Assembly: GCA_034670305.1 (NCBI GenBank)
Contig: JAXMNT010000001.1
Coordinates: forward strand, 160,001 to 224,000
Origin: Deltaproteobacteria bacterium
Lineage (GTDB): Bacteria; Myxococcota_A; Polyangia; Polyangiales; Houyiibacteriaceae
Reading direction: 5' to 3'
Length of the DNA stretch: 64,000 nt
The position numbers and the translations under genes are program-made. Position 1 is the stretch's first letter; every line of letters starts with the position of its first letter. Under the pieces are notes generated by a model. That model saw nothing but the letters and a program-made list of their open reading frames with translations. It did no database searches and was not told the DNA's origin. Below, in pieces: positions 19,886 to 49,951 of the stretch.

Positions 19886-20584
19886 ATGGCGCGTCGCACT
19901 CGAAAATTGAAACAGTTGGACCTGCAGTTTCGGCAGTGGGGTGGGCGACGGGTGGGCGCGGGTCGCAAGCCGAAGGGAGAACGGGCAGGCGTGGCCCATC
20001 GCCGGAGGCCGGCCATTCAGAACCGGCACCCTGTGCACGTGACCATCAAGGTCGCGAAGGACCTGCCAAACCTGCGCCGCCGCGACCTCCGGGCGGTCTG
20101 CTTTGCGGTCTTGGAAGAAGCGGCCGAGCGCCACGGCATGCGGATCGTTCACTTCTCGATTCAGAGCAATCACGTGCATCTCATCGTCGAGTGCAAAGGC
20201 ACGACGGCGCTGCAACGCGGCATGAAGGGTTTGCTCGTTCGGCTGGCCAAGCGGCTCAACAAACACCTCGGCCGGCGCGGACAAGTGTTCCCCGACCGCT
20301 ACCACGTCGAGCCGCTGAAGACGCCGACCCAGGTCCGCCACGCGCTCCGCTACGTGTTGAACAACGCCCGCAAACACGCGGGGGCCCGCAAGAAGATCGA
20401 CGCCCACTGGGTGGATCCATGCTCCACCGCGCACACCTTCGATGGTTGGAAGTCGACGCCCAAGTGCCCCGCGAACTGTGATCGAGCCCCGAGGATGCCA
20501 AGAGCGGGCACCTGGTTGCTCCGCGTCGGGTGGAGGAAGCGCGGGAGGATCCCCATCGACGACATCCCGGGTCCGCGCCGCTGA
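19886..20584 (+). CDS. REP-associated tyrosine transposase (RAYT, Y1 HUH family)
   Basis: PVHVT, HFSIQSNHVHLIVE (HUH), GQVFPDRYH, LRYVLNN (catalytic Tyr). Confidence 0.88.
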   Translation: MARRTRKLKQLDLQFRQWGGRRVGAGRKPKGERAGVAHRRRPAIQNRHPVHVTIKVAKDLPNLRRRDLRAVCFAVLEEAAERHGMRIVHFSIQSNHVHLIVECKGTTALQRGMKGLLVRLAKRLNKHLGRRGQVFPDRYHVEPLKTPTQVRHALRYVLNNARKHAGARKKIDAHWVDPCSTAHTFDGWKSTPKCPANCDRAPRMPRAGTWLLRVGWRKRGRIPIDDIPGPRR

Positions 20585-33859: not shown

Positions 33860-35191
33860 ATGTTCCGTTTGGGTTGGCCGTGGTGGGAAGCCGCCCCTGT
33901 GTCCGTGCTGCCTGTGTGCGTGCTGCCTGTGTGCGTGTTGGCGTGTGTTCTCCTGGCCTGCGGATCCACCGAGCCACCAAGCAGCGACCTCGCCCCCTCC
34001 GTCGAGCCCGTGGAGGCCGTGGAGCGGTCGTATCCCGACTCCGACTACGGCCGCGCGCTCCGCGACTCCGATGTTCGGCTCGCGGATCTTCGGACCCGGC
34101 TCGACACCCCGGGCGCGCTTCACCGCCAAGCGTACGTCGCCGCGTTGCTGGATCGGGCCCGGCTCGTTGGCGGGGTCACGGACTACGCGGCCGCCCTCGC
34201 CGCGCTCGAAGATCTCCAGGCGCAATTGCCACGCGAGCAGTGGCCGCACAGCATCGCCGCGGGCGTCTACGCGTCGGTGCACCGGCTCGACGCAGCCGAA
34301 GACGCGCTCGACGGAGCGCAGCGCCGGATCCTCGGCGCCAACCACGCCGCGATCGCCGCCGCCCGCGGCGACCTCTACCTCCACCGGGGTCTCTTCGAGG
34401 TGGCCCACGCGCTGTTCGAGGAGTCCGAGCAGCGCAGCCCGCACGGCGGCGCCGCGAGCCACGTGGCCTACTACCACTGGCAACTCGGCGACTACGCGGC
34501 CGCCGACGCCGAGCTCGATCGCCTCACGCTGTTGCGCGGCCGCCATCTGGCGTACCTCGAGTTCACCCGCGGCATGCTCGACTTCGCGCAGGGCCGACAC
34601 GGCGAAGCGCTCGCGCACTACGAAGCGGCGGACGACGCGTTCTCCGGTTGGCCGCTCGTCTGGGAACACATGGCCGAGGTGCACCAAGCCGAAGGCCGAC
34701 TCTTCCTCGCGGAGGCGCTGTACCGCCGGGTCGTCGAACTCACCGAGAGCCCAAGCGCGATGACGATGCTCGCGCTCTGCGTGGACGCCGACGAAGCCGC
34801 CTACTGGTTGCGGCGCGCGGAGCAACTGCATCGACGGGACCTCGAGCTCTTGCCCGAAGCGTCGGCCGGCCACGCGCTCGACTACTTCCTGCACCACGGC
34901 GACCCCGCCGAAGCGCTCGACCTCGCCATCCGCAACCACGGCTTGCGACCGGGCGGCGAAGCGACGGTGAAGTTCGCCCAAGCGCTGTGCAACGACGGCG
35001 CCTGGCACCTCGCCGCAGCCCGCCTCGACCGGCTGCACGCCACCACCCCCTTCCGCTCGCCAGAGAGCCTCGCCACCGCCGCCCTCGCCCACCGACAGCA
35101 GGGCGGCGAGGCCCGCGCCGCCGAGCTCGAATCCGAAGCCAACCAACTGCACCCGGACGCCATCTCCCTCGTCGCCTGGCTCACCCCCTGA
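33860..35191 (+). CDS. TPR-repeat lipoprotein
   Basis: Lipobox LLAC, repeated TPR-like helices; start uncertain. Confidence 0.8.
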   Translation: MFRLGWPWWEAAPVSVLPVCVLPVCVLACVLLACGSTEPPSSDLAPSVEPVEAVERSYPDSDYGRALRDSDVRLADLRTRLDTPGALHRQAYVAALLDRARLVGGVTDYAAALAALEDLQAQLPREQWPHSIAAGVYASVHRLDAAEDALDGAQRRILGANHAAIAAARGDLYLHRGLFEVAHALFEESEQRSPHGGAASHVAYYHWQLGDYAAADAELDRLTLLRGRHLAYLEFTRGMLDFAQGRHGEALAHYEAADDAFSGWPLVWEHMAEVHQAEGRLFLAEALYRRVVELTESPSAMTMLALCVDADEAAYWLRRAEQLHRRDLELLPEASAGHALDYFLHHGDPAEALDLAIRNHGLRPGGEATVKFAQALCNDGAWHLAAARLDRLHATTPFRSPESLATAALAHRQQGGEARAAELESEANQLHPDAISLVAWLTP

Positions 35192-35288
35192 GAACGAAGT
35201 CGCGGTCGCAGTGGAGCGGGGGTTCTGCGACGGAACTCCCCCCACTCCCCCACAACTCCCCCGAACTCTCCCCAAAACGGTTTCGGAT

Positions 35289-35448
35289 TCGGCAGCGGCA
35301 GTGGCAGCGGCAGCGGCAGTGGCAGTGGCACCAGCAGTCACAGCATCAGCGACAGCCCATGCTCTCCTTCGGAGTCGCGCGGTTTGTAGCCTCTCCTTCG
35401 GAAGTCGGCTCCTTCGTCCTTCGGACTCGGAGTGACCTGGGGGTGGGC
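35289..35448 (+). repeat. 160-bp direct repeat, copy 1 (hexamer array plus 5' part of leader)
   Basis: Matches 36080-36239 with two mismatches seen. Confidence 0.93.
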
Positions 35449-35626
35449 TTGCTGGCTCGGCGGGATCTTGATGGTGGCGGAGTGCTCGGGCGCGTCAAGG
35501 GTGCCTTCGGCCCCAGCCTTCGGAAGGCTGGCTTCGCCCTTGACCCGCCCTCCGCTCTCCACCGGGGGCGCACGGGGTGCGCCGCCGAGCAATGTCGCTC
35601 TGGTGTGTGGCGCGTTGGAGGCTGTG
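35384..35626 (+). ncRNA. Putative structured leader RNA, copy A
   Basis: Homologous to 40855-41100 and 46423-46657; cUUCGg loops and compensatory stem changes. Confidence 0.65.
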
Positions 35627-35938
35627 ATGATTGTTCTCGAATCTTGTTTCGTTCTCGTTGGTGAGTTGCGCGGGGTGCTGGCGGCTGTTTCTCGCCGGGA
35701 CCGTTCGCTGGGTGACCAGATGCGGCGGGCGGCTCAGTCCGTCGTTCTGAACTGCGCCGAAGCGAAGAACGCGCGGGGCAAGCGGAGCGTGGACCGCTTC
35801 TCCATCGCATACGGCGAAGCGAGTGAGCTGAAGGCGGCTCTTCGGTTGGTGCGGTTGTTCGGCTACGCGGAGGTTGGCGAGGAGGTGATGCGGCGGTGCG
35901 ACGAGGTCTGCGCGATGTTGTATCGGCTCAGTCGCTAG
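35627..35938 (+). CDS. Four-helix-bundle protein (23S rRNA IVP / Avd-like family)
   Basis: GGAGG RBS; DRSLGDQMRRAAQSVVLNCAEA and FSIAYGEASEL family motifs. Confidence 0.88.
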   Translation: MIVLESCFVLVGELRGVLAAVSRRDRSLGDQMRRAAQSVVLNCAEAKNARGKRSVDRFSIAYGEASELKAALRLVRLFGYAEVGEEVMRRCDEVCAMLYRLSR

Positions 35939-35968
35939 ACCGGCTGCGAGGCCCGCGCGAGTCGCGGG

Positions 35969-36147
35969 CCTCGGCGTCGGCAGCGCCAGGGGCAGCGGCT
36001 TTCGGCGTCGGCTTTGGCGTCGGCCTCGGCTTCGGCCTCGGCGTCGGCCTCGGCGTCGGCTTCGGCGTCGGCCTCGGCATCGGCAGCGGCAGTGGCAGTG
36101 GCAGCGGCAGTGGCAGTGGCACCAGCAGTCACAGCATCAGCGACAGC
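35969..36147. repeat. Hexamer array, (TCGGCN)n grading into (GGCAGY)n
   Basis: cggcgtcggcctcggcttcggcctcggcgt...ggcagcggcagtggcagt. Confidence 0.85.
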
Positions 36148-36239
36148 CCGTGCTCTCCTTCGGAGTCGCGCGGTTTGTAGCCTCTCCTTCGGAAGTCGGC
36201 TCCTTCGTCCTTCGGACTCGGAGTGACCTGGGGGTGGGC
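36080..36239 (+). repeat. 160-bp direct repeat, copy 2 (contains a truncated leader)
   Basis: Near-identical to 35289-35448; diverges after gggtgggc. Confidence 0.93.
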
Positions 36240-36340
36240 CTCCGTCGGATCAGGCGGCACGGCCTGCCCCAATCTGTCACTCCCCCGCCCTCGGTTTCGG
36301 CCGCCCTGACCGCGCCGCGTCAGGTGCTATCTTCCGGCCT

Positions 36341-39300
36341 ATGGCTTCACTCTTTCATGGGGGCGCGGCGCCTCGCTTCGCTGCTTCCCACGCCTTCGCG
36401 TCAAACTCGGGACGCTTGATCCCCGCGCTGCTCCTGTGCTCGTTGCTCCTCGCCTGCGGCGACGACGACACCACGCCCATCGATGCGGGCCCGAGCGACG
36501 CCGCCGATGTCGGCATCGACGTGCCGCTCCCCGACGGCCCGCGCGGCGACGTCCTGCGCATCCCGGAATCCGAGCGCCGCGAGCTGCCGCTGAACGACGA
36601 AGTCTACGTGCTTCGGACCGAGACCCACGTGCCGCACGTGTACGCCTCGAACGAACACGACCTCCGCGTCGTGCAGGGCTTCTTGATGGCCCGCGACCGC
36701 TACTTCCAGATCGAAGCCGGCCGCCGCCTCGGCCAAGGCACCCTCAGCGGTCTGGTCGGAGACGCAGCGCTCGCCGCTGACATCGGCGCCCGCACCCAGG
36801 GCATGACCCGGGTCGCCGACCGCTTGGCCGCGAGCCTCACCCCCGAACAACGCGAAGTCGTGCAGGCCTTCACCGACGGCGTGAACGCCTACGTTCGGCT
36901 CGCCAAAGCCCGCGGCATCGCGGCCCCGAGTGAGTTGACCATCGCCGCGCCCGTCTTTGGTGCGACCAGCGCCGGCGCGCTGATGGAAGAGCTCTCGCTC
37001 GAAGACCTCATCGCCTTCGCCGCGGTCCCCGTCTACCAGCTCGGCTGGGAAGCCAAGGACCTGCGCTACGCCGAAAGCGAAGCCTTCGTCGCGGACGTCT
37101 TCACCGGCGCGGAGACGGATGCGGAGCTCAGGCACGATGGTGCGGTCCAGGACATCTTCCAGAACGTCGACCCGATCAACGACATCGTCTCCGCCAGTGG
37201 CTTCGGGCTCGAAGAGGGCACGTCGTCGTTCCTGCCGAGCTTCGGCCCCCCCCGCGCCCCGGCCCGCTTCGTCGCGCCCCAGGCGATGCCGGTGGAGCGC
37301 ACCATGCTCGACCGCTTGCGCGCCCAGACGGACCGCTTCGAACACACCCTGCGTGGTCCGGTCGACGGAGACTTCGGGTCCAACGCCTGGGCCGTCGATG
37401 GCGCGCACTCGGAAGGCGGCGCAGCGCTCTTGGCCGGCGACGGACACCTCCCGCTCTCGATCGCGCCGCTCTTCTACCAGCTCGGTCTCGACACCAGCGT
37501 CTTCGGCGAAGGCGCCGACAACGACATCACCTTGATGGGCCTCTTCTTCGCCGGCATCCCGCACATGGCGGTCGGCACCAACGGCCGCGTCGCGTGGTCG
37601 CAGACTTACCTGCGCGGCGACGTCACCGACTGGTACGCCGAGGAGCTCGTGCTCGACGCCGAGGGCATGCCGGTGGCGACCCGTTTCGAGGGCAGCGACG
37701 AACCGCTCGTGCGCATCGAGGAGTCCTACGAGATCCGCAACGTGCCGGGCCTCGGCAGCGTCGGCCGCACCGAGACCATCGCCCGCTTCGAGACCTTCGA
37801 CGGCCGGCCGATCACCGCGATCGAAGGCCGCCCCGCCACCGCGGACACCGTGCCCGGCGACGGCGAGTCGCTCGTGAACATCGGCGGCGAATACGTCATC
37901 CCGGAGGACGTCGACGAAGACGGAACCATCAGCGCGGTCAGCTTCGACTTCGCGGGCTTCGACGTCTCCAACATCCTGCGCGCGCTCGAAGGCTTCAACG
38001 ACTCGAACACCGTCACCGACTTCCGCAACGCCACCCGCGAGCTCGTCACCTACGCGCAGAACCTGGTCGCGGCCGACATCGAAGGCGACGTCTACTACGG
38101 CAGCTACAACGCCATCCCCACCCGCGAGTACCTGGAGCGCACCGAAGCGGGCGGCCCGTGGACCCCTGGATCCGATCCGCGCAGCTTGCTCGACGGCACC
38201 CGCTACCGCGGCTTCGAGATCGTGCTCGACGAAAACGGCATGCCGGACGAGTCGATGTGCGCAGGCGATACCTACCGCTGCCTCGTGCCGTTCGATGAGT
38301 GGCCCGCCGCGCTCTCGCCCGACCGCGGCTTCGTGCTGACCGCGAACCACGACATCGCCAACATCACCACCGACGGCGACATCTTCGACGACCCGTACTA
38401 CCTCGGCGGCGCCTGGAACAACGGCTTCCGTGGCGCGTCGATCACCGCGGGCATCGTCGCGCTCGGCACCGGCGCGACCGCGGCGGCGATGAGCGAGCTG
38501 CAGAACGACCACCACTCCGTGCTCGGGCCGCTCTTCGTGCCCTACCTGCTCGAAGCGATCGACGAAGGCCAGCGGCTCGCTGCCGAAGAAGCGATCACGC
38601 CTTCCGAGATGCGGCTGCTCGCGATTTACACCGCCAACCAAGCCGCGCTCGATGAAGTCGAGACCCGGCTGGCCGCGTGGGTGGCCGGCGGCGCCGAAGC
38701 GGCGTCGGGTGTGGACACCTTCTACCACTCCGCCGATGGCGAAGCGGACGACAGCGTGGCGACCATGATCTTCAACGAGTGGTGGAAGAAGGTCATCGCC
38801 GCGACGTTCGAAGACGAAGGCATGGCGCCCGCGTTCGGGCCCGACGTCTCCACCAGCATCACCCGCGCGATGTACGACCTCTACCGCGGCCGCGGCGCCG
38901 GCAACCCCGCGGGGCTGCAGTCCTGGAACGTAGCGACGTCGGAGTCGGTCTTCTTCGACGACCTCGGCACGGTGGAAGTCGAGTCGAGCCACGAAGTCTC
39001 GCTCTCCGCGCTGACGACCGCGCTCGCCGCGCTCTCGGCCGACCCCGATCCCGAAGTGCCGGGCGTCGGCGGCTTTGGTTCCACGGACATGGACGACTGG
39101 CGCTGGGGCCTGCGTCACCTCGTCAAATTCGAGTCCCTGGTCGCGACCTTCGTCGGCACCGACCCGGCCTTTGCGCTCTTGGCCAACGGCTTCTCGATCA
39201 CCCCCGAGACCCTGCCGCTCGCCGAGGACCTCGAGGAGACCGACCCGCGCGCGACCCTTCCGTGGTTCCCGCGCCCGGGCGACCTCTTCAACGTCGACGC

Positions 39301-39559
39301 CGGCCACTACGATCCCTTCGCGGACGATTACTTCTATGCAAACGGCCCGGTCATGCGCATGGTCGTGCGCCTCGAAGAAGGCAACATCTCTGGCGTCAAC
39401 ATTCTCCCGGGCGGACAGTCCGGATTGACCGACTCCGACCAGTTCGACGACCAAGCCCAGCTCTGGCTCGCGAACGAGACGGTGCCGCTGCGTTTCCACG
39501 TGGCGGACGTCGTCGCAGGTGCGACCTCCCGCGAGACCTACGCCCCGATGGGCGACTGA
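36341..39559 (+). CDS. Penicillin acylase family (Ntn hydrolase) lipoprotein
   Basis: Lipobox LLAC, VPHVYA, ARDRYFQ, autocleavage GSNAWAV, LAGDGHL, PGGQSG. Confidence 0.92.
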   Translation: MASLFHGGAAPRFAASHAFASNSGRLIPALLLCSLLLACGDDDTTPIDAGPSDAADVGIDVPLPDGPRGDVLRIPESERRELPLNDEVYVLRTETHVPHVYASNEHDLRVVQGFLMARDRYFQIEAGRRLGQGTLSGLVGDAALAADIGARTQGMTRVADRLAASLTPEQREVVQAFTDGVNAYVRLAKARGIAAPSELTIAAPVFGATSAGALMEELSLEDLIAFAAVPVYQLGWEAKDLRYAESEAFVADVFTGAETDAELRHDGAVQDIFQNVDPINDIVSASGFGLEEGTSSFLPSFGPPRAPARFVAPQAMPVERTMLDRLRAQTDRFEHTLRGPVDGDFGSNAWAVDGAHSEGGAALLAGDGHLPLSIAPLFYQLGLDTSVFGEGADNDITLMGLFFAGIPHMAVGTNGRVAWSQTYLRGDVTDWYAEELVLDAEGMPVATRFEGSDEPLVRIEESYEIRNVPGLGSVGRTETIARFETFDGRPITAIEGRPATADTVPGDGESLVNIGGEYVIPEDVDEDGTISAVSFDFAGFDVSNILRALEGFNDSNTVTDFRNATRELVTYAQNLVAADIEGDVYYGSYNAIPTREYLERTEAGGPWTPGSDPRSLLDGTRYRGFEIVLDENGMPDESMCAGDTYRCLVPFDEWPAALSPDRGFVLTANHDIANITTDGDIFDDPYYLGGAWNNGFRGASITAGIVALGTGATAAAMSELQNDHHSVLGPLFVPYLLEAIDEGQRLAAEEAITPSEMRLLAIYTANQAALDEVETRLAAWVAGGAEAASGVDTFYHSADGEADDSVATMIFNEWWKKVIAATFEDEGMAPAFGPDVSTSITRAMYDLYRGRGAGNPAGLQSWNVATSESVFFDDLGTVEVESSHEVSLSALTTALAALSADPDPEVPGVGGFGSTDMDDWRWGLRHLVKFESLVATFVGTDPAFALLANGFSITPETLPLAEDLEETDPRATLPWFPRPGDLFNVDAGHYDPFADDYFYANGPVMRMVVRLEEGNISGVNILPGGQSGLTDSDQFDDQAQLWLANETVPLRFHVADVVAGATSRETYAPMGD

Positions 39560-39696
39560 CGCGATTGAAGTTTCACCCGCACCACCCTCGAACTGGCAAT
39601 GTGACGGCAACCCGCGTGCGGGTGCCCACCACGTTGTGTCGGGCACAGCTGTGAAGGCAAAAGTCCGCGGCGCGTAGGCGCGCGGCATTGGGGACC

Positions 39697-40707
39697 ATGA
39701 CCGAAGCCACCACCACCTCCGACCTCGAGGTCGCCGACTCCGAGCTGCTGCTCCGCCTCACCGGACCGAACAGCGCACACCTCAAAGCCCTTGGCTCCGA
39801 GTTCGACGTCGCGATGGGTTTGCGCGGCGACACGATCCGCATCCAAGGCGACGCCGCCAAAGTCGCGGTCGTCGAACGGGTGCTCGCGGAGCTGCTCGGC
39901 GTGCTCGCCCAGCGCACCCTGAGCGCCAACGAGATCGCGCGCGCCGCCCGCACCGTGGCCGACCACCCGGAGATGCACCTGCAGGAGCTCTTCGACGACG
40001 TCGTCCTGCGCACCGGCAGCAAACGCGTCATCTCCCCGAAGGGCGTCGCCCAGCAGTCCTACGTCGCGTCGATCCGTTCGCACGACGTGGTCTTCGGCGT
40101 GGGGCCGGCCGGCACCGGCAAGACCTACCTCGCGATGGCCATGGCGGTCGCGGCGCTTCAGGAGCGCTCCGTCAAACGCATCATCCTCACCCGGCCCGCG
40201 GTCGAAGCCGGCGAGAAGCTCGGCTTTCTTCCGGGAGACCTCGCGGAGAAGGTGAACCCCTACCTGCGTCCGCTCTACGACGCGCTGCACGACATGATGG
40301 ACGACTCGAAGGTCGCTGGCCTCATGGAGCGCCAGACCATCGAAGTCGCGCCGCTCGCGTTCATGCGGGGACGCACCCTGAACGACGCGTTCGTGATCTT
40401 GGACGAAGCCCAGAACACCACCCAGGAACAGATGAAGATGTTCCTGACCCGCCTCGGCTTCCGCTCGCGCGCGGTGATCACCGGCGACATCACCCAGGTC
40501 GACCTGCCCGGCGGCCGCCGCAGCGGACTCGCGGACGCGCAGTACTTGCTCGAAGGCATCGAAGGCATCGCGTTCTGCAAGTTCTCCGACGCCGACGTCG
40601 TACGTCACCCGCTCGTGCAAAAAATCATCCGCGCCTACGACGCACGAGACGCGAAGCGCTTCGCGGCCAGAGAAGCCAAACGCGCGAAGCGCGAAGAAGC
40701 CGAGTAG
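39697..40707 (+). CDS. phoH: PhoH-family ATPase
   Basis: [51 protein letters not shown]. Confidence 0.95.
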
Positions 40708-40744
40708 CGCCGTAGCTAGGCCGGTAGGGGAGGAGTAGGGCTGT

Positions 40745-40855
40745 AGAAGCAGCTGCAGACGCGGTGGCACAGCAGAAGCAGCGGCAGAAGCAGCGACAGA
40801 AGCAGCGGCAGGAGCAGCGACAGCGGCAGAAGCAGCGACAGCGGCGGAAGCAGCT
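40745..40855. repeat. Degenerate (CAGCRG/CAGAAG) hexamer array
   Basis: cagcagaagcagcggcagaagcagcgacagaagcagcggcagg... Confidence 0.8.
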
Positions 40856-41100
40856 GTAGCCTCTTCCTTCGGAAAGTCGGCTCCTTGCAATCCTTTGGAT
40901 TTTGGGAACACCCCAATTGGTTGGGCTTGCTGGCTCGGCGGCAGATTGATGGTGGCGGAGTGCTCGCCTGCGTCAAGGGTGGCCTTCGGCCCCCAGCCGA
41001 TGCGGCTGGCTTCGCCCTGGACCCAGGCTCCGCTCTCCACCGGGGGCGCTCCGCGCCGCCGAGCAATGTCGCTCTGGTGTTTGGCGCGTTGGAGGTCCTG
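40855..41100 (+). ncRNA. Putative structured leader RNA, copy B
   Basis: Colinear with 35384-35626 through the RBS and ATGATTGTTCTC. Confidence 0.65.
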
Positions 41101-41190
41101 ATGATTGTTCTCATCCGCTCGTACGCCGAAGGTGAGGGCGCCCGAGAGGTCTACCGGGACATCGCCGGCTTCCTGCTCGACTCGCGCTGA
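41101..41190 (+). pseudogene. Four-helix-bundle gene truncated after MIVL and joined to unrelated sequence (29-codon ORF)
   Basis: First 12 nt identical to 35627-35638, then homology is lost. Confidence 0.55.
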
Positions 41191-41206
41191 GGCGCCGATC
41201 GTGGAC

Positions 41207-43042
41207 TCACTCGGTGGGTGAGGGGTTCTCGATCGCGAAGTTGATCACATAGGGTGGGTCGAAGACTTCCGGCACGCCGCCGGCCACGTCCCGAACGCCG
41301 CCGGTCACGAAGAGCGAGCCGGCGATGCGGGTGTTGCTCGATTCGGCGGCCAAGACGAAGCCTTGGTTGAGCAGGAAGTTCGGCGCCCCGTCGATCTCCA
41401 CGAAGAGGTTGGCGCCGGGCCCGAGCGGGTAGACGCCGCGTGGCCAGGAGACCTCTTCGATGGGCGTGTCCATCGCGGCGACGGCGATCTGGAGCGTAAG
41501 CACCGCGGGGTACGAAGCGTCCCCGAACCCCGAAGTCCCGGAGGCGTTCATGACGAAGACCTTGGCGCCTGGGCCGGTCCCGAGGTACGCGCGCACATCG
41601 CTGACGTAGGGCGAGTCCGCGGACCCGTCGCGACGGAACGTGAAACCAACGGCCGTGCCCTCGAGGTTCACGTCGCCCACGCACTCGGCCACGTCTTCGG
41701 TGGAGATGAGACCGAGGTCGCGCGCGAAGTGCAGCTTCGTGTACAGCGCCGCGAACCGAGAGGGCACACCCATCGTGTCCATGTGGGCGCGCATCACCTG
41801 GCAGCCGATGTCCTTGCCGGTCACGCGCTCGTCTGCGTAGACGGGTCCCATGATGCCCCACGCCACCATCTCTGCGATGTCGTCGGTGAGGCGGGTGGCG
41901 CCGTACCGGGACATGGCACCCCCGAGCGCGACCGCCTGATCGGTGCCGGCCGTGAGTGCTTCCTCCTCGCTGCCGGCCAATCGGGTCGCCAGCCGATCCC
42001 AGCGCGAGGGGTGCGGTGCCGCCCAGCCGAGCTCCACGAACTCTTCGTGCAGCCGCTCCCATTCCTGTACGAGTCCCCGCTGCAGCCGCACGTGTCGGAT
42101 GGTGGTGCGCGCCGTGCTTCGCCAGGACTCGGCCCACATGCCTCCGAAGTCTCCTGGGTGCCGTCCCTCGACGCCGAGCAAGAAGGTCGCCGCGTGGGTC
42201 GCTTCATGCAGCAGCGTTTGCTGTGTGCCGAGTTGGCCGGACAGGCCCGGCAGCATGACCCGCGCGTTCAGAACGACGATGTCACCTTCGGACTGAGAGA
42301 CGAAGCCAGCCACCCCGCTGGCGCGTTCCATGAATGCGATTCGGGAAACGGAGTGACAGAGCAGGCGCGGCATCCGGTTCAGGCCGGCCTCCACCGCGGT
42401 GCGCAGAGCCGGGCTCGCGGTGACGAGCACGTCGCCGTCGTGGAGCACCCCGCGGAGCCGGTCGCCGTCCGTCTCGTCCATGATCTGGACGTGTGCGCAC
42501 GCTGCGTTCGAGCGGCTGAGTGCTTCGGTCCGGGGCGCGACGATCGCGGCGGGGGTCGCCATGGTGACGAGCGTTGTCCCGGTGTCGTCCACGAGCGCGA
42601 TCTCGGTCGCGTCGAGGTTGCCGCGCAAGTAGCCAACGGCGCTGACCACGCCTTCGATGAGGGACTCCTCGTGGTAGGGCAGGCCGCTATCGTCGTAGTG
42701 CATCGACCGGGTGTCGGCGAAGTGCAGGAGCTGCCCGTCGACCTCGACGCCAGCGCTGTCGCGCGCAACCAGGAGCACCTCGCCGGTGGCGGGACCGGGC
42801 GGGATGCCGACCTCGGACAGCACGTCTACGCTGTCGACGTCACCGAGGGTGAAGATGCCGTCGGTTTCTCGAAAGACGGTGACCCGCCAGATGGGTTCCT
42901 TCGGTCCCGAGAGATCGAAGTACGGCGACTCACCGCACCCCGGGGTGGCGGCGCAGGCTTCTTCGTAGGTCTCGAACTCAGCGGGTTCGGTATCGCCGCA
43001 GCCGATGGTGAATGCCAAGAGGACGCAGAGTGATCGGAGCAT
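41207..43042 (-). CDS. Lipoprotein with HExxH zinc-metallopeptidase motif
   Basis: Lipobox TIGC, LLHEATH, downstream SRYGAT...DDIAE. Confidence 0.75.
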   Translation of the reverse strand: MLRSLCVLLAFTIGCGDTEPAEFETYEEACAATPGCGESPYFDLSGPKEPIWRVTVFRETDGIFTLGDVDSVDVLSEVGIPPGPATGEVLLVARDSAGVEVDGQLLHFADTRSMHYDDSGLPYHEESLIEGVVSAVGYLRGNLDATEIALVDDTGTTLVTMATPAAIVAPRTEALSRSNAACAHVQIMDETDGDRLRGVLHDGDVLVTASPALRTAVEAGLNRMPRLLCHSVSRIAFMERASGVAGFVSQSEGDIVVLNARVMLPGLSGQLGTQQTLLHEATHAATFLLGVEGRHPGDFGGMWAESWRSTARTTIRHVRLQRGLVQEWERLHEEFVELGWAAPHPSRWDRLATRLAGSEEEALTAGTDQAVALGGAMSRYGATRLTDDIAEMVAWGIMGPVYADERVTGKDIGCQVMRAHMDTMGVPSRFAALYTKLHFARDLGLISTEDVAECVGDVNLEGTAVGFTFRRDGSADSPYVSDVRAYLGTGPGAKVFVMNASGTSGFGDASYPAVLTLQIAVAAMDTPIEEVSWPRGVYPLGPGANLFVEIDGAPNFLLNQGFVLAAESSNTRIAGSLFVTGGVRDVAGGVPEVFDPPYVINFAIENPSPTE

Positions 43043-43103
43043 GCGTCGGAGTGTACGGCAGGAAGGGAATGCCCGGACCTGCCGCACGCGCTATCAAGCC
43101 CGC

Positions 43104-44843
43104 ATGGGTGCGCGTTCTCTTATCGTTGGGCTCGACGGGGCCGATGTGTCGGTCCTCGAGGAGCTTGGGCCGCGGCGGCTCCCGAACCTCTACGCGCACA
43201 TGCAAAACGGCGCTTGGGCGCGGCTGGAGAGTGTGCGGCCGCCCGCGACGTTGCCGAACTGGACCACCTTTCTGACCGGCATGGATCCGGGGCGGCACGG
43301 GGTCTTCGACTTCACCACCCGCGATGGGTACGGGGTTCGTTTCACGGCCGGCACGGTGCGGGAGACGCCGACTTGGATCGCGCGGCTCGATGCGCTCGGC
43401 AAACGCTGCGCGTGCGTTGGGTTTCCTGGGACTTGGCCGCCTGAGCCGCTGGAGCATGGGATCTTCATCAGCGGGTGGGATGCGCCCGTCGCGTTTGAAG
43501 CGGACCGTTCGTTTGTGTGGCCGGAGGTCCTGTTCGACCGGATCGTGCAGCGGTTCGGACCGATGGACTTCGACGTGGGCGAGTTCGATGCCGACGCGGA
43601 AGGCTGGCACGATGGGCTGGCGGACTTGCTGGTCTCGAAGATCGAACGCAAGACCGCGCTCGCCCAGTGGCTGATGGACCCGTCGTCGGGCGGCGCTTCC
43701 GAAGACAGTACTGCGCTTCCCACAGACAGCACGGACTGGGACGTGTTCGCGTTCTACTTCGGCGAGAGCGACACCGTCGCGCACCACCTCTGGGCCCACC
43801 ACGATCCGGGCTCGCCGCGCCATCCGAGCGGCGCTTCGGCGCGCAGCCGCGCGGGGCTCGGCAAGGTCTACGAAGCGCTCGACCGCGCGGTCGGCGCGCT
43901 GGTTCAGGCCGCGGGCAAGGATGTGGAACTCACCCTGGTGAGCGATCACGGCTCCGGTGGGTCGAGCGACAAAGTGCTCTACCTCAACCGCGCGCTCGAG
44001 CAGGCGGGGCTGTTGAAGTTTGCGCCCACTTCGATCCTGCCGTGGAGCCGCTTGGCCAAAGACGCCGCGCTCACGCTCTTGCCGCCTCGGCTCAAAGAAC
44101 GGCTCTTCCGCGCGTACGGCGCGCGCCTGCCGAGCTGGCTCGAATCGCGCGCCCGGTTTGGCGCGATCGACTTTGGCGCCACCGTCGCGTTCAGCGATGA
44201 GCTCAACTACTTCCCGGGCGTGTGGCTGCACCTCGCCGGTCGCGACCCGCTCGGTTTCGTGCCCGAAGAAGAACGCGATGCGCTCGCCCGCCGGGTGAGC
44301 GACGCGCTCTACGACTTGCGGGATCCGTGGTCCCGCGAGCCCGTCGTCGAAGCGGTGCACCGGCGCGAAGTGATCTTCGACGGCGACTTCGTGGAGCGCG
44401 CGCCGGATCTCTTGCTCGACTTCCGCCTCGACCACTCGGAGAGCCCGCGCGGCTACAGCTACAACCTGATGCCCACCGCGAGCGCGCCCCGCGGCATTGG
44501 CGCGTGGCGCCGGCTCGCGGAATCCGAGCACCTCGGCCGCAAAGGACGCAGCTTGCCCGGCAGCCACCGCAACCACGGCTTCTTCGCGGCCTCCGGACCG
44601 AGCGTCGACGCGGTCGGGGAAGTGGACGCACACATCGCCGACGCTGCCGCCACGGTGCTCGCGCGGCTCGGCGCGGAGATCGACCCCGTGATGCGCGGCC
44701 GCGTGCTCTTTGAAGTCTTGCGCGACACTGCGGGCACGACCGAAGCGCTGCCCGCTGCCCGGGTGGCCAAGGGCGGCACGGGCGGTGGGGACGGCGAAGC
44801 CCGGGTCGAAGCCCGGCTGCGTGCGCTCGGCTACATCGACTGA
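43104..44843 (+). CDS. Alkaline phosphatase superfamily phosphodiesterase/nucleotide pyrophosphatase
   Basis: IVGLDGA, PPATLPNWTTFLTG, DTVAHHLW, VSDHG, GSHR, C-terminal RLRALGYID. Confidence 0.88.
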   Translation: MGARSLIVGLDGADVSVLEELGPRRLPNLYAHMQNGAWARLESVRPPATLPNWTTFLTGMDPGRHGVFDFTTRDGYGVRFTAGTVRETPTWIARLDALGKRCACVGFPGTWPPEPLEHGIFISGWDAPVAFEADRSFVWPEVLFDRIVQRFGPMDFDVGEFDADAEGWHDGLADLLVSKIERKTALAQWLMDPSSGGASEDSTALPTDSTDWDVFAFYFGESDTVAHHLWAHHDPGSPRHPSGASARSRAGLGKVYEALDRAVGALVQAAGKDVELTLVSDHGSGGSSDKVLYLNRALEQAGLLKFAPTSILPWSRLAKDAALTLLPPRLKERLFRAYGARLPSWLESRARFGAIDFGATVAFSDELNYFPGVWLHLAGRDPLGFVPEEERDALARRVSDALYDLRDPWSREPVVEAVHRREVIFDGDFVERAPDLLLDFRLDHSESPRGYSYNLMPTASAPRGIGAWRRLAESEHLGRKGRSLPGSHRNHGFFAASGPSVDAVGEVDAHIADAAATVLARLGAEIDPVMRGRVLFEVLRDTAGTTEALPAARVAKGGTGGGDGEARVEARLRALGYID

Positions 44844-44854
44844 GGTCCTTCCGC

Positions 44855-45922
44855 ATGCGCATGCTGCACATCGCCTGTCTGCCGATGCCGAGCCCGCAGG
44901 GGACGCAGGCGGTGCTGCGCACGATGACCGAAGCGCTCGCGCGGGCGGGGCACGAGACGCATCTGCTGACCTATGGGTACGGCGCGGGGGCGGCGCTCGA
45001 GGGGGTGCTGCACCATCGATGTGGAAGAAGTGGCAGGGGCTCGATGCGCTCCGGTCCCTCGTGGTCGAAGGTGCGGGACGACGTGTTCATGGTCGCGTCC
45101 ACCCGCCGGCTCGTGCGTCGCCTGCAGCCCGAGGTCGTGGTTGCGCACAACGTGGAAGCCGCGCTCGTCGTGAACACGGCGACTTCCCTCCTGGCCGTCC
45201 GTCCCCGCACTCTCTACTTCGCGCACACCCGCTTCGATCTCGAGCTGCCGACCTACGGCCGCGTCGGCCGTGCGGGCGCCGTGTTTGGTCGCGCGCTCGA
45301 CACGCTCGCTTGCCGGCTCGACCAAGTCGTCGCGATCTCGCCGGCGCTGGGAGATCATCTCGGCGCGCCGGTCGTGCTGCCACCGTGGCCAGTTGCGGCG
45401 CCGATCTCGGACGACGAACGTCGCGCGGCGCGCACAGCGCTCGGTCTCGCCGAAGACGAACCGGTGCTGCTCTACGCGGGCAACCTGGACGGCTACCAGG
45501 GCTGGGAGGTTGCGGCCGCCGCGGCACAGGCGGTGGGTGCGACGTGGCTCGTCGCAACTGAGTCGGACCCGGCGCCGCTGCGGCGCTTCCCGCATCTGCG
45601 GATGCGCTTGGCCACCGAAGCGAATCGAAGACGCGCGCACGCGGCCTGCGATCTCGCGCTCGTGCCGCGGCGCACCCCGGGCGGACTGCCGATCAAGCTG
45701 CTCGATGCACTTGCGCGGGACGTGCCGGTGGTGGCGAACCGGCGCGCGCTCGCGGGGCTGAGTGCGGCCGGCGTGGAGGTGTGCGTGGACGATGACGTGG
45801 ACGCGTTCGCGGCGGCGATTCGGCGCGCGTTGAGGGAGCCGCCGAGGGGGGGGTGGGCGTGGGTGGCGGAGACGTTCGGGGAGGACGGGTTCGTGCGGGG
45901 GTTGTGGGAGAGCGTGTCGTAG
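44855..45922 (+). CDS. Glycosyltransferase family 4 (GT-B)
   Basis: ALARAGHETHLLTY, LYAGNLDGYQG, GLPIKLLDALA..VPVV. Confidence 0.85.
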   Translation: MRMLHIACLPMPSPQGTQAVLRTMTEALARAGHETHLLTYGYGAGAALEGVLHHRCGRSGRGSMRSGPSWSKVRDDVFMVASTRRLVRRLQPEVVVAHNVEAALVVNTATSLLAVRPRTLYFAHTRFDLELPTYGRVGRAGAVFGRALDTLACRLDQVVAISPALGDHLGAPVVLPPWPVAAPISDDERRAARTALGLAEDEPVLLYAGNLDGYQGWEVAAAAAQAVGATWLVATESDPAPLRRFPHLRMRLATEANRRRAHAACDLALVPRRTPGGLPIKLLDALARDVPVVANRRALAGLSAAGVEVCVDDDVDAFAAAIRRALREPPRGGWAWVAETFGEDGFVRGLWESVS

Positions 45923-45940
45923 CGGCCCGCGTGTGGGCTG

Positions 45941-46410
45941 TGTTGCTGTTCGCTGTTCGCTGTTGCGGTTGCTGACTCTGACGCTGACGCTGACGCTGAC
46001 GCTGTTGCTGATTCTGATTCTGATTCTGATTCTGACTCTGATTCTGACTCTGATTCTGATTCTGACGTCGCAGCCGAAGCCGAACCCGAAGCCGAAGCCA
46101 CATCCGAATCCGAATCCAAAGCCGACGCCGAAGCCGACGCCGAAGCCGAAGCCGAAGCAGACGCCGAAGCAGACGCCGAAGCCGATTCCGCCACCACGAC
46201 CCCCACCGCTACCGCGACCCCCACCGCTACCGCGACCCCCACCGCTACCGCGACCCCCACCGCTACCGCTACGCGACCCCCACCGCTACCGCGACCCCTA
46301 CCGCTACCGCTACCGCTACCGCGACCGCCTCCGCCTCCGCTTCCGCTTCCGCTTCCGCGACCGCTTCCGCTTCCGCGACCGCTTCCGCGACCGCTCCGCT
46401 TCCGCGACCA
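45941..46410. repeat. ~470-bp compound hexamer/18-mer microsatellite
   Basis: Successive blocks (CTGACG)n, (CTGATT)n, (CCGAAG/CCGACG)n, (CCGCTACCGCGACCCCCA)n, (CCGCTT)n. Confidence 0.9.
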
Positions 46411-46422
46411 GGACCGCACCGC

Positions 46423-46657
46423 TTGTAGCCTCTCCTTCGGAGTCGGCCTCATCCTCTCCTTCGGAATCGGATTCGGGTCCGATGGGGCTGGGGTTGTGCC
46501 CGGCGGGAGGTCAAGCGTGTCGTCTGGCGTGCCAGGCCTCAAGGGGGCCTACGGCCCGGCGGGATGCCCGCCGCTTCCTTGACCCCTGACCCGCCAGACG
46601 ACGGCGGCCTGCGGCCGCCGGGCATGTCGCTCGGTCGTCGTCACACAGGGGTCTCCG
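46423..46657 (+). ncRNA. Putative structured leader RNA, copy C (diverged)
   Basis: Starts ttgtagcctctccttcgga like copy A; same stem order with a different sequence; keeps tcaaggg, ccttgac and atgtcgctc. Confidence 0.6.
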
Positions 46658-46972
46658 ATGATCGTTCTTCAAACTTCCTTCGAACTCGTGCGTTCGCTGC
46701 GCGCTCAGGTACTGCCGCTCGTACGCAAACACGACGCTTCGCTAGCGTCACAGATGCAGCGCGCGGCGCAGTCCGTGGTTCTGAACATCGCAGAGGCTCG
46801 GCAGGCGCGAGGACTTCGTTGTCATGACAAGTTCTCGATTGCCTACGGAGAGTGCAGCGAGCTGAAGGCTGCGATTCAGCTCGCTGAGGTCTTTGGGTAC
46901 ATCGACCTGGACGCGACGCTCCTCGATCGGTGCGACTACGTCTGCGCGATGCTGTACAAGCTCAGCCGTTGA
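46658..46972 (+). CDS. Four-helix-bundle protein (23S rRNA IVP / Avd-like), paralog of 35627-35938
   Basis: MIVL start, SLASQMQRAAQSVVLNIAEA, FSIAYGECSELKAA, RCDYVCAMLYKLSR. Confidence 0.9.
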   Translation: MIVLQTSFELVRSLRAQVLPLVRKHDASLASQMQRAAQSVVLNIAEARQARGLRCHDKFSIAYGECSELKAAIQLAEVFGYIDLDATLLDRCDYVCAMLYKLSR

Positions 46973-47053
46973 GGTTCGGCCGGCGTCCAAGGGGCGCCGG
47001 CCCCTGAGCCAAGGGCGGAGCGTCCGCCGGACGCTCCGCTTCGCGCCCGCCCA

Positions 47054-49951
47054 CTACTTCTTCTTCTTGCGGGCGAGGAGTTGTTCGGCCAGCGAGCTTG
47101 CGGGCGGGGCGGCGGGTTCCGGCTTCTCATCGGCCTCGGCCGCTGGCGGTGCCGCTGCCGCTTGTTTGTCGGTGGAGCCGAGTGGCTTGTTGCTGGGAGA
47201 CAGCACCGCGGTGTCTCCGTCCGCGGCGCCGGCGAGGGCTTCTTTGATCTCGTCCGCGGTCTCTTCGTTGCGGGCGCGCTTCTTGGCTGCGATCGCCATG
47301 GCGGCGCTCGATTGCAGCGCTTCCGCGCGCCGGGTCTTCTTGCGGCGGAAACGTTTCGGGATGAGGCGCGCGAACATGCCGGCGGGCAACACCAACCGGC
47401 GCATCGCGACGCCGAGCAGGAAGAAGCACAGCGCGCTCATCAGGAGCGGGGGCCAGAGCGGGTCGTAGGCGTAGGTGGGGGGCGGGCGGTCGCTGAAGAC
47501 TTCGCTCAGGTCCGTGCGGACTTCGCCACCGGTGAGCGCGGCGACTTGGCCGAGCAGCGCGTGGTTGGTTCCGTCGCCGCGCAGCTCGTCGCCGCTCGGG
47601 CGCACCATGCCGGCGCTGCCGACCATGCCGCGGTCGTCTTCGGTGACGGTGACGAGGTAGGGACCCGGCGCGTTCGCGTCGAACGTGCCTTCGTAACGGC
47701 CGGCTCCGGTCTGCTGCAGGTCGACGTCCACTCGGCGACCGCCCGGCGCGGCGACGGTGCCACCGAGGTCGAGGTAGTTGCGGTACTGGCCGGCGTCGCT
47801 GACCGCTTCGACCCGCACCCGGCCGATGCCGTTCTCGATGCGCAGACTGACCTGGGCGTCGCGCCGTTCGGGGGCGCGGGCGAGGTCGCGGGCGAGCTGG
47901 GAGAAGAGCTGGGAGTACCCGGCCCATCCGAGCCACGGTTGCCCGAACTCGGCGCCGACGTCGGTGGTGAAGACGCCGGAACGGCCGACGCCGTGCTGCC
48001 ACACCGCGAGCAACGCGTCTTCGTCGTCCTTGGCCCGCAGCAGCACCGTCGCGCGGTTGCGCGCGTTCACCACCGAGTAGCCGCCGAGCGCGGGTGCGCT
48101 TCCGAAGTCGATGCCGCGGGTCGCGGCGCCCGGCATGATCGGCTCGGCGCGGAACGGCTCTTCCACGATCGCGGCGCGCGAGGCTTCGATGGTCTCCTGG
48201 GTGAAGATGCGCGGCAGCTGCGTCATGTCGTCGACGATGTAGAAGCGGCCGCCGCCGAGTCGGCTCAGGTGCTCGAGTTCCGGTGTGTCCGGGCCGCGGC
48301 CCATGGAGACGATCGAGGTGGTGATGCGGTCCTGCATCGCGCGCCGGACCATCTGGCGGGTGCCGGTCATGTTCTCGGAGTCGTTGCCGTCGCTGAAGAG
48401 CAGGAAGTGTTTGAGCTGCGTCTGCTCCGCGCGGAGCGCGTCGTACGAAGCCTCCATCGTGATGTCGACGAAGATGCCGCCGCCGCCCGGTTGCGCGCGC
48501 CGGACCGTGCCGGCGATCGACGCGGGCGAGTCCACGCTCGTCATCGGCTGCGTCCACTCCACCATCGTGTCCACGTGCATGACGCCGACTCGGTCCATGG
48601 GGCTGAGCAACATCGCCGAGCGCGCAGCGGCTTCGTTCGCCATCTCGAGTTTGGTCACGCCGGGCGAGGCCTCGGCCATCATCGAGCCGCTCTTGTCGAT
48701 GGCGATGATCATCGCGAGGGAGAGCCGGTCGCGGCGCTGCCGCAGATCGAAACGCGCCGGCAGCACTTCTTCGACCGGGGTGTAGGCGTAGCCACCGAGC
48801 CCGAACGAGTCGCGGGCGCCGACCATCAAGAGGCCGCCGCCGAGGTCGCGCACGTACGAAGCGAGCGCGTCCATCTGGTCGCTCGTGAAGGCGCGCGCGT
48901 TCACGTCGCTCAAGACGACCAGATCGTAGGTGGCGAGTTCGCCGAGATCGATCGGGAAGCGGGCCGCGCGCCGGAGTTCGGCTTCGAGTCCCGAGCCCTG
49001 GATGGCGGCGGTGAGCGCCTGTGCTTCGGAGACTTCGCCTGCGGCGACGAGCACCCGGCTGCCCCCGAGCACCCGCATGAACGCGCCGCCTTCGTTGTTG
49101 CGGCGGCCGAGATCGTGGCCAGCGGTGAGCGGCTCGACCAGCACGTCGTAGCGATGCACGCCCGAGTCCGGCGCTTCGTCGCGCATCACCAAGACGTCGC
49201 TGCCCGCGTCGAGCACGGTCTCGGTCTCCGCGAGGGTGGTGCCGTCGCGCATCACCCGGACCCGCGCGGGGGTGCGGTGGGTGGCGCGGGTGACGATGCG
49301 GATCTCGATCGGTTCGCCGGGCCGCGCGGTCGGCGGCACGCGGACCCGTTCCACCGCGACCTCTGGCTCCGGCGCGCGTTCGATCGGCAGCACGTCGACG
49401 ACCACGCCACGGCCCGCTGCCAGCGACGCGGCCGCCAGCGCGTCGCCGCGGGTCTCCACTCCGTCGCTGACGACGACCACGCGGCCGGTGTGTTCCGCGG
49501 GGATGTCGGCGAGCGCGCGCCGGATCCCGGCGGCCAGATCGGTGGCGTCGCGAGGCACGCTGGCGCGCAGTGCGCCGACCGGCGGTCGCGGGGAGGGCAA
49601 GAGCTCCGTGGTCGCGCTGGCGCCGAAGACCACCACGCCGGCTTGGTCGCCGGTCCGCATCGTCTCGATCGACCGACGGATGCTGCGCATCGCATCGTCG
49701 GCGGTCTGGCTCGCGTGGTCGATCGAGCGGCTGCGGTCGACGGCGAAGACCACCGCGAGCCGGTCGATGCGGCGGCCGAACTCGAGCCCTGCGATGGCGA
49801 GCGTCGCGGCGATGCCCGCGAGCGCCATCACCACTTGGATCTTTCGTCGGCGCGATCCGAAGTCGTTCGGGAGCCGGGTGAGCCGCCATACGAGCAGCAG
49901 CAGCAGCGGGGCCGCCAGCGCGAGCAGCCACGGTTGGGAGAGACGCATCAT
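47054..49951 (-). CDS. Membrane protein with two VWA domains and a glutamine-amidotransferase-like domain
   Basis: MIDAS motifs DRSRS and DKSGSM, VSDG/FSDG, GGGLLMVG...SFGLGGY, N- and C-terminal TM. Confidence 0.88.
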   Translation of the reverse strand: MMRLSQPWLLALAAPLLLLLVWRLTRLPNDFGSRRRKIQVVMALAGIAATLAIAGLEFGRRIDRLAVVFAVDRSRSIDHASQTADDAMRSIRRSIETMRTGDQAGVVVFGASATTELLPSPRPPVGALRASVPRDATDLAAGIRRALADIPAEHTGRVVVVSDGVETRGDALAAASLAAGRGVVVDVLPIERAPEPEVAVERVRVPPTARPGEPIEIRIVTRATHRTPARVRVMRDGTTLAETETVLDAGSDVLVMRDEAPDSGVHRYDVLVEPLTAGHDLGRRNNEGGAFMRVLGGSRVLVAAGEVSEAQALTAAIQGSGLEAELRRAARFPIDLGELATYDLVVLSDVNARAFTSDQMDALASYVRDLGGGLLMVGARDSFGLGGYAYTPVEEVLPARFDLRQRRDRLSLAMIIAIDKSGSMMAEASPGVTKLEMANEAAARSAMLLSPMDRVGVMHVDTMVEWTQPMTSVDSPASIAGTVRRAQPGGGGIFVDITMEASYDALRAEQTQLKHFLLFSDGNDSENMTGTRQMVRRAMQDRITTSIVSMGRGPDTPELEHLSRLGGGRFYIVDDMTQLPRIFTQETIEASRAAIVEEPFRAEPIMPGAATRGIDFGSAPALGGYSVVNARNRATVLLRAKDDEDALLAVWQHGVGRSGVFTTDVGAEFGQPWLGWAGYSQLFSQLARDLARAPERRDAQVSLRIENGIGRVRVEAVSDAGQYRNYLDLGGTVAAPGGRRVDVDLQQTGAGRYEGTFDANAPGPYLVTVTEDDRGMVGSAGMVRPSGDELRGDGTNHALLGQVAALTGGEVRTDLSEVFSDRPPPTYAYDPLWPPLLMSALCFFLLGVAMRRLVLPAGMFARLIPKRFRRKKTRRAEALQSSAAMAIAAKKRARNEETADEIKEALAGAADGDTAVLSPSNKPLGSTDKQAAAAPPAAEADEKPEPAAPPASSLAEQLLARKKKK

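Follow-up and report, generated by a model that had tools for sequence, protein, structure and literature searches.

Four cassette copies within 12 kb

We analyzed a stretch of 64,000 nucleotides from the genome of a Deltaproteobacteria bacterium (GenBank assembly GCA_034670305.1, contig JAXMNT010000001.1; G000:C1:160001-224000 in our numbering), referred to below as the window. The window has a G+C content of 68.7% and belongs to a genome of 7.93 Mb in 105 contigs. Four occurrences of a cassette were found in it, two of them intact, in which an array of short tandem repeats is followed by a folded leader and a gene for a four-helix-bundle protein of the 23S rRNA intervening-sequence protein (IVP) family. 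The block reappears as one unit at intergenic sites that are otherwise unrelated, both in the same genome and in other bacterial families of the same class.

A preliminary description of this DNA had listed four occurrences that start with GTAG, all on the positive strand and each behind an array. A motif search, Tandem Repeats Finder (TRF), and reading of the third copy confirmed all four. The 17-mer start motif was exact at 35386, 36177, and 46425, and a match at 46449 proved to be an internal echo within copy 4. With up to 3 mismatches allowed, 4 matches were obtained versus 0.21 expected, and none of 100 shuffled sequences reached 4. The start of copy 3 at 40856 carries a 1-nt insertion and was recognized by reading and alignment, not by the 17-mer search. 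Arrays with periods of 6, 12, or 18 nt precede every start (35290-35338, 36075-36129, 40772-40854, and 46205-46409). As described earlier, two sites hold complete leader-to-gene copies (copies 1 and 4), one has kept only its leader (copy 3), and the truncated occurrence, previously put at ~65 nt, is a 63-nt stub (copy 2).

Copy 1 belongs to the subfamily designated A below. Its upstream array (35290-35338), of the (CGGCAG)n type, contains the CAG core common to family A arrays. A 47-nt module (35339-35385), which about half of the 14 aligned family A copies possess, separates the array from GTAG in copies 1 and 2. The leader (35386-35626) consists of ~60 variable nucleotides, a fold with helices P1 to P5, and a Shine-Dalgarno sequence (SD); a covariance model built from such leaders matched 35416-35629. 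The gene (35627-35938) encodes 103 amino acids and was assigned by Pfam and TIGRFAM profiles, alignment, and predicted structure. After the stop codon, a G+C-rich, terminator-like hairpin (35948-35972), conserved in the family A alignment, leads into a (GGCTTC/TCGGCG)n array and then into another (CGGCAG)n array, which is that of the stub (35967-36129 together). Copy 2 (36130-36239) comprises the 5' module and the first 63 nt of the leader and ends just before helix P1. Over its length, the stub matches the beginning of copy 1 with 100% identity, and the array and 5' module in front of it were duplicated as well. A C-rich run with a period of 9 to 10 nt (AACTCCCCCC type) lies just 5' of the copy 1 array, at 35228-35280; similar runs were seen upstream of a family A copy on contig C11 and at the end of a same-genus contig (L056).

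In copy 3, a (GCAGAA/GCAGCG)n array (40772-40854) precedes a complete family A leader and four codons (40856-41112). The model matched 40890-41103 with 174 bits, and the reading frame, ATG ATT GTT CTC at 41101 (MIVL), diverges thereafter, the remainder of the gene being lost. Copy 4 is preceded by three abutting arrays, (CTGACT)n, (AGCCGA)n, and (ACCGCT)n (45970-46409). Its leader (46425-46657; model match, 46456-46660) and its gene for 104 amino acids (46658-46972; assigned by profile matches and alignment) belong to subfamily B, and a G+C-rich hairpin conserved in the family B alignment follows the stop codon at 46978-47002. All of these features are on the positive strand.

The neighboring genes are unrelated to the cassettes and encode, according to Pfam, a penicillin amidase, PhoH, a phosphodiesterase, and GT4 and VWA proteins. 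The earlier statement that the flanks are unrelated therefore stands, but its labels "TPR" and "peptidase" could not be confirmed, as the open reading frames (ORFs) at 33860-35191 and 41207-43087 (negative strand) had no Pfam match at an E value of ≤1e-5. A scan for sigma-70 promoters returned 0 sites versus 0.4 expected, which is uninformative at 69% G+C.

Protein, leader fold, and arrays across the genome

Both window proteins passed the curated cut-offs of PF05635 (52.5 and 57.9 bits; cut-off, 33.8) and TIGR02436 (57.9 and 60.3 bits; cut-off, 24), in agreement with the earlier comparison to IVP and to Avd of diversity-generating retroelements (DGRs). They are 61% identical to each other and basic, with isoelectric points of 8.4 to 9.4 among the cassette proteins. 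AlphaFold (AF2) predicted a four-helix bundle with a mean local confidence (pLDDT) of 95.8. The nearest solved structures are two free-standing IVP proteins, XCC0516 (2GSC; template modeling [TM] score, 0.82) and BT_0352 (2RLD; TM score, 0.88), which were the best matches in sequence (lowest E value, 1.8e-10) as well as in fold and have five chains in each entry. TM scores of 0.72 to 0.74 were obtained for Avd alone (4DWL) and in the DGR ribonucleoprotein (RNP; 8UB7), at 13 to 14% identity. From the five chains in 2GSC, 2RLD, and 4DWL, and from the pentameric ring that PMC4990558 cites for the Xanthomonas protein, we infer by analogy that the cassette proteins form homopentameric rings. The motif R-x3-S-x3-N-x2-E, taken from PMC3936711, which places genes of the family inside cas loci, is kept as R-AAQ-S-VVL-N-xA-E in families A and B, while family C has L for N; the leading G-x2 is not kept.

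PF05635 is equated with Avd in PMC10053308. Like Avd, the cassette proteins are basic four-helix bundles, and Avd, which sits in an RNP with a structured RNA, offers a model for a protein that binds a neighboring RNA. Unlike in DGRs, no reverse transcriptase (RT) gene lies beside the cassettes, and no template/variable repeat pair was seen, although no search was aimed at one. PADLOC and PHROGs profiles matched no defense or phage family among the cassette proteins. We found no RNA partner or repeat context described in the literature for XCC0516 and BT_0352, nor, in main texts, any multicopy, leader-bearing cassettes of the PF05635 family.

An iterated search of six-frame ORFs across the genome yielded 38 ORF pieces, which include 33 intact genes and one that is frameshifted. 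They fall into subfamilies A (14 copies, counting the frameshifted one), B (8 copies), and C (12 copies), with a few additional truncated copies. A covariance model of the leader (R1) recognized 40 sites, 34 of them followed by one of the genes already found, classed as intact; the others were window copy 3, two leaders with degraded genes, and three solo leaders. The copies are thus not few. The order from 5' to 3' is a strand-fixed short-unit array, a fast-evolving module of ~60 nt, a fold of ~170 nt, the SD, a gene of 103 or 104 codons, a hairpin, and, often, a second array. In alignments that included 700 nt upstream and 300 nt downstream, homology ended at the arrays and the flanks beyond were unrelated, so the repeated unit is the array, leader, gene, hairpin, and often second array, and no larger segmental duplication. 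Two cassettes stand in tandem on contig C46, as do copies 1 and 2 in the window, and 20 of 28 cassettes are co-oriented with the upstream gene as crudely called.

The fold was drawn by hand with 38 pairs and is rod-like, with helices P1, P2, and P3, a three-way junction, and a side hairpin, P5; it includes an invariant UCAAGG/CCUUGA helix. It always lies 35 to 45 nt before the SD and start codon, on the same strand. Its alignment comprised 31 of the 34 leaders, three with loop insertions of ~70 to 75 nt being left out. In these 31 copies, 88.3% of cells were paired, compared to 36 to 42% with slid partners, and the covariation score was 0.253 as opposed to at most 0.083; changes on both sides occurred in 15 of the 38 pairs (115 cells). 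When 7 leaders from other genomes were combined with 6 from this one, in an alignment that is fitted to the covariance model, 92.8% of cells were paired (40 to 43.5% with slid partners), 24 of the 38 pairs had double changes, and covariation rose to 0.441 versus at most 0.075. RNAalifold independently recovered the main helices with 10 compensatory pairs, and minimum free energy (MFE) folds of single copies gave the same helices with z scores of -1.7 and -3.1. Rfam covariance models had no match at an E value of ≤1 over positions 35000-47500. The leader is a candidate for a new motif among the structured RNAs of a bacterial class.

Loop insertions are compatible with the fold. An identical insertion of ~70 nt occupies one fold loop of the family A leaders on contigs C28 and C68, which account for the only 2 high-scoring segment pairs (HSPs) of that sequence in the genome. 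An insertion of ~80 nt with a GGGGCTGTGCCCC hairpin interrupts the family C copy at 57088 on contig C10, in a loop of its leader, as well as a family A ORF (C11:27643-27722), and part of this insertion is found in the window at ~14590-14625. Genome-wide, this insertion gave 66 blastn-short HSPs, 32 of them of at least 60 nt, and it produces a recurring peptide-like frame in many spurious ORFs.

An array ends within 100 nt upstream of 35 of the 40 leaders, compared to 5.3% of random positions in crudely defined intergenic DNA. Genes were called crudely (GC3 filter), and only 68.5% of the genome is covered by these calls, so that coding DNA is included in the intergenic controls; the true background must exceed 5.3%, but not tenfold, and a threefold correction leaves a large enrichment. 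The array cores are specific to each family and fixed in strand: CAG plus three variable bases in family A (0.86 to 0.89 per position), CCGC in family B, and CCGA-N-G in family C. The gene is usually followed by a (GGCTTC)n array in family A, whereas families B and C have the same unit on both sides, in direct and not inverted order. The earlier proposal that array, leader, and gene form one unit agrees with this genome-wide association, with the family-specific type and strand of the arrays, and with the same pattern in other genera.

Most cassettes adjoin arrays, yet most arrays do not adjoin cassettes. The genome contains 1,396 merged period-6 arrays that make up 1.9% of its DNA, and more than 95% of them are located away from cassettes. 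Long arrays with no adjacent cassette are found in the window at 52921-53126 (TCGGAT/TCGGCT/CGGAAG)n, 59389-59543 (CCGTTT)26, and 62624-62916 (CGGAAG)49. In four DNA sequencing runs of one study, the contigs containing the stretch break at arrays and cassettes; a fifth run contains a relative with 93 to 95% identity, in pieces of 0.3 to 0.9 kb.

Age, mobility, and distribution in other genomes

The mean synonymous divergence (dS) between copies was 0.45, 0.53, and 0.63 in families A, B, and C, with ratios of nonsynonymous to synonymous divergence (dN/dS) of 0.13, 0.09, and 0.06, respectively. The leader core evolved 4 to 6 times more slowly than dS, with Jukes-Cantor distances of 0.075 to 0.12 as opposed to 0.5 to 0.8 in the adjacent 5' module of ~60 nt. 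Both the protein and the fold are thus under constraint, and a single recent burst did not produce the family. The identities of leaders and ORFs were uncorrelated (r = -0.05 in 78 pairs, partly confounded by two insertion-bearing leaders). In the tandem pair on contig C46, the leaders are 98.8% and the ORFs 88.5% identical, and for window copy 1 and the copy on contig C44 these values are 97.5% and 88.1%; the closest ORF pair in the genome is 97.1% identical. Such mosaic identities indicate that ectopic recombination between copies continues.

Several hallmarks of transposition were looked for. Shared flank words of at least 8 nt occurred in 1 of 32 copies (control rate, 4%), and this single case stems from the 5' module duplicated between window copies 1 and 2, so no genuine target-site duplication was found among the 32. 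In the 33 copies of families A, B, and C examined, no terminal inverted repeats were found and none had flanks pairing with a z score below -2; the mean z scores of +1.3 to +1.8 were worse than those of shuffles. The genome encodes 3 RVT_1 (C23:86418, C10:168437, and C67:18832) and 11 Y1_Tnp proteins, and none of these genes regularly adjoins cassettes. The window has no RVT_1 gene, and the cassette nearest to one (C67:13298) is 5.2 kb away. One of the 11 paralogous Y1_Tnp (IS200-like) genes, for proteins of 233 to 249 amino acids, is located in the window at 20072-20362 (positive strand); no link was found between this gene and either the cassettes or the hairpin of family D, described below.

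Over 31 genomes, and ignoring kinship and genome size, the number of family genes correlated with that of (CCGNNN)-type arrays (Spearman's rho, 0.67), RVT_1 genes (0.48), and Y1_Tnp genes (0.23). Co-occurrence with RT or HUH genes was seen as such correlations but not as a strict link: one genome (G015) has 10 family genes and a leader model hit but no RVT_1, another (G026) has 9 family genes and neither enzyme, and a third (G012) has 31 family genes and no Y1_Tnp. The preliminary description had gone further and considered the cassettes mobilized in trans. As stated, this is unsupported, given the dS of 0.45 to 0.63, the lack of target duplications, the unpaired termini, and genomes with 9 to 31 family genes that lack RVT_1, Y1_Tnp, or both.

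Among 30 relatives, the leader model had hits in 5, and among 150 further genomes of this class, in 3; because 15 to 77 candidates were scored per genome, these counts are lower bounds. Thirteen of the 14 foreign leaders directly follow an array, all with different units and with periods of 6, 7, 8, 12, or 13 nt. Thus, the presence and side of the array are conserved, whereas its sequence is not. A gene follows directly in 11 of the 14, and a contig end truncates one more. Synteny with cassettes of the present genome was limited to 1 of the 14 loci (L039), where the best match of a flanking gene lies 1.5 kb from a family C copy in another relative orientation. A metagenome search with the amidase gene returned 12 loci, three of which keep the amidase-PhoH synteny at 61 to 68% identity with neither cassette nor leader; their other flanks are nonsyntenic. 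A 2.2-kb contig from the same genus ends 134 nt past phoH and has no array or leader there, although its intergenic DNA is unalignable in general. In one metagenome relative with 68% identity (L047:5897-6956), the amidase-PhoH spacer is ~1.06 kb, as opposed to 129 nt in the window. In a related genus (G002, e.g., C6:465600-466234), family genes form convergent pairs ~15 to 30 nt apart, unlike here, and no leader model hit was obtained.

The Pfam model PF05635 had 47 matches in the genome, and the surplus ones led to a further family, D, found through a second jackhmmer run that strayed to 149 ORF pieces, most of them reading frames across repeats, and that was put to no other use. The reference copy (C14:16220-16835) contains a more canonical PF05635 gene (C14:16417-16749) and has the order hairpin, (CCCTTG)n arm, leader of ~150 nt, gene, inverted (CAAGGG)n arm, hairpin. 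The arms pair with a z score of -3.3, which makes family D IVS-like, in the sense of the intervening sequences (IVS) of 23S rRNA. Pieces of its leader were found at 144 loci and of its ORF at 138, with 95 to 98% identity, and at least 80% of the ORF is present in only 6. Of the short arrays in the genome, the two most frequent classes (445 and 101 TRF rows) are of the family D arm type. In the window, an internally deleted family D copy is located at 14446-14862 (negative strand), and an arms-only relative at 10896-11036 consists of inverted (CCCTTG)5.5 and (GGGCAA)5.5 arms around 75 nt, with no gene and with different outer hairpins. The ~140 near-identical and mostly decayed loci of family D indicate that cassettes with a protein of this family can multiply and degenerate as mobile DNA does. 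Its long-lived, constrained counterpart is formed by families A, B, and C.

Interpretation of the cassettes

The reading that we consider best, with a probability of about 50%, is that the cassette is a maintained module of a protein and a cis-acting RNA, probably an autoregulated RNP, that has been spread and reshuffled by recombination. The protein, a member of a family that forms rings and binds RNA in solved relatives, would bind to the fold in the leader of the mRNA that encodes it, and perhaps to the RNA of the periodic array too. The resulting RNP would control its own translation and may also act at other sites. Family A leaders begin with conserved bases, GUAGCCUC, that could pair with the SD, as in one MFE fold. 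New copies would arise by duplication or relocation of the whole block, and reshuffling would proceed by homologous recombination between copies and between arrays; the spread would involve no dedicated transposase or RT.

Several observations weigh against this reading. The array units differ between genera, so any binding of arrays would require coevolution, and the family-specific cores are explained just as well if the arrays were inherited passively. Three solo leaders persist with no gene. Gene conversion, rather than selection, may explain part of the leader conservation. The pairing of GUAGCCUC with the SD was seen in an MFE fold of family A only, shows no covariation, and does not extend to family B, which folds differently. 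Finally, counts of G·U versus A·C pairs (6 versus 37 on alignment A2 and 8 versus 8 on alignment A6) do not favor the sense strand, which leaves room for a fold in antisense RNA or single-stranded DNA.

The last point is the starting point for the proposal that the cassette is a DNA-level element, whose fold would arise in single-stranded DNA and serve as a site of recombination or replication pausing, like attC or repetitive extragenic palindromic (REP) elements, the arrays being products of slippage. Covariation is blind to the difference between RNA and DNA, the copies are mosaics, and the array stands on one fixed side of the fold, whatever its unit, at 35 of the 40 loci in this genome and at 13 of the 14 elsewhere. 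We nevertheless hold this proposal to be quite unlikely, as the fold keeps its distance and strand relative to the SD and start codon and is lost or decays upon loss of the gene in few cases only, and no integrase or Y1 gene is linked to the cassettes. Somewhat more attention is due to a nonautonomous mobile element, a block copied by an RT or HUH/Y1 transposase encoded elsewhere. The ~40 dispersed loci in unrelated contexts, with their discrete ends, tandem copies, stubs, and solo leaders, would suit such an element, as would the RVT_1 and Y1_Tnp genes in the genome, the correlation with RVT_1 (n = 31), and the proliferation of family D to ~140, mostly internally deleted loci. It appears doubtful all the same: the copies have diverged under strong purifying selection, three genomes are counterexamples, and no enzyme gene regularly lies beside the cassettes. 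Unlike transposons or miniature inverted-repeat transposable elements, families A to C have neither target duplications (32 copies) nor inverted or pairing termini (33 copies), nor, at a mean dS of 0.45 to 0.63, the near-identical copies left by recent activity, which family D (95 to 98%) does have. The arrays are given the leading role if IVP rings are readers of periodic sequence, each paralog family reading its own unit (CAG plus three bases in A, CCGC plus two in B, and CCGA-N-G in C) and, via the UCAAGG/CCUUGA helix, its own leader. Known examples of periodic RNA bound by ring proteins are the trp leader with TRAP and (ARN)n with Hfq. The likeness to the cassettes, in which a fixed core of 3 to 4 nt with variable spacers is repeated beside the leader of a ring-forming family, is one of analogy only, with no homology and with units that differ between genera, and we judge the idea unlikely. 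If it were true, the ~1,400 short-unit arrays and ~47 IVP genes would constitute one network of RNA or single-stranded DNA binding, and the short tandem repeats beside this family, from rRNA IVS to these cassettes, would be explained.

Other readings set the protein's RNA partner in a different light. The cassettes could be processed like IVS, the flanking repeats pairing in the host transcript so that RNase III cuts the stem and the cassette is excised. PMC4990558 describes an IVS of Coxiella burnetii that is excised by RNase III and has 2 to 3 GACAGAT heptamers, variable in number, before an S23p ORF that is probably untranslated and decaying. The IVS of Coxiella and Leptospira share with the cassettes a PF05635 protein in a small, self-contained ORF, and the upstream heptamers recall our arrays; inverted arrays do occur in family D and in one cassette of another genome (L037 in G027), and the co-orientation of 20 of 28 cassettes with the upstream gene would fit as well. 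Yet the flanks of families A, B, and C pair worse than shuffles, and the units of B and C are direct. Unlike 23S rRNA IVS, these cassettes lie outside rRNA, between protein-coding genes (amidase, PhoH, GT4, and VWA), lack a terminal inverted stem, and have a conserved folded leader of ~170 nt and ~40 copies under purifying selection. IVS-like processing of families A to C is therefore highly improbable.

The layout of repeats, structured RNA, and small protein gene, in many dispersed copies under purifying selection, also brings to mind an addiction module akin to type III toxin-antitoxin systems, in which the upstream RNA (leader, repeats, or both) would neutralize a harmful small protein and so keep copies intact. 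Known type III antitoxin repeats, however, are far longer than 6 nt, tens of nucleotides as opposed to the hexamers found here, and they precede an endoribonuclease toxin, whereas no relative of the IVP family is known to be a nuclease or toxin. No PADLOC or PHROGs match was obtained, and leader-only remnants exist while gene-only copies are rare, the opposite of the decay expected of an addiction pair. This makes such a module very unlikely. The leader might, lastly, be an ordinary cis-regulatory 5' untranslated region (a thermosensor, a riboswitch, or an RNase target) of an expanded paralog family, with no tie to the encoded protein and with arrays as bystanders. Its position fits, as does the abundance of arrays in this genome, more than 95% of 1,396 being off cassettes. 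A bystander role agrees poorly with the adjacency of arrays (35 of 40 versus 5.3%), which is family- and strand-specific and is kept in other genera with other units, and the leader, a rod in which the UCAAGG/CCUUGA helix is invariant, would seem to resemble a binding site for protein more than a pocket for a ligand. We regard this explanation, too, as quite improbable.

To what had been described, the present work adds the selection analysis, the covariance model, the conservation of array position across genera, mobility tests with negative outcomes, and a comparison with the contrasting family D. PF05635/TIGR02436 is a very large family with no known function outside DGR Avd. The cassette supplies it with a conserved, covarying RNA neighbor and a recurrent array, so that the function of the family becomes directly testable. 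It also bears on the old question of why short tandem repeats stand beside IVS ORFs, and it ties part of the unusual hexamer-array load of this genome to a gene family.

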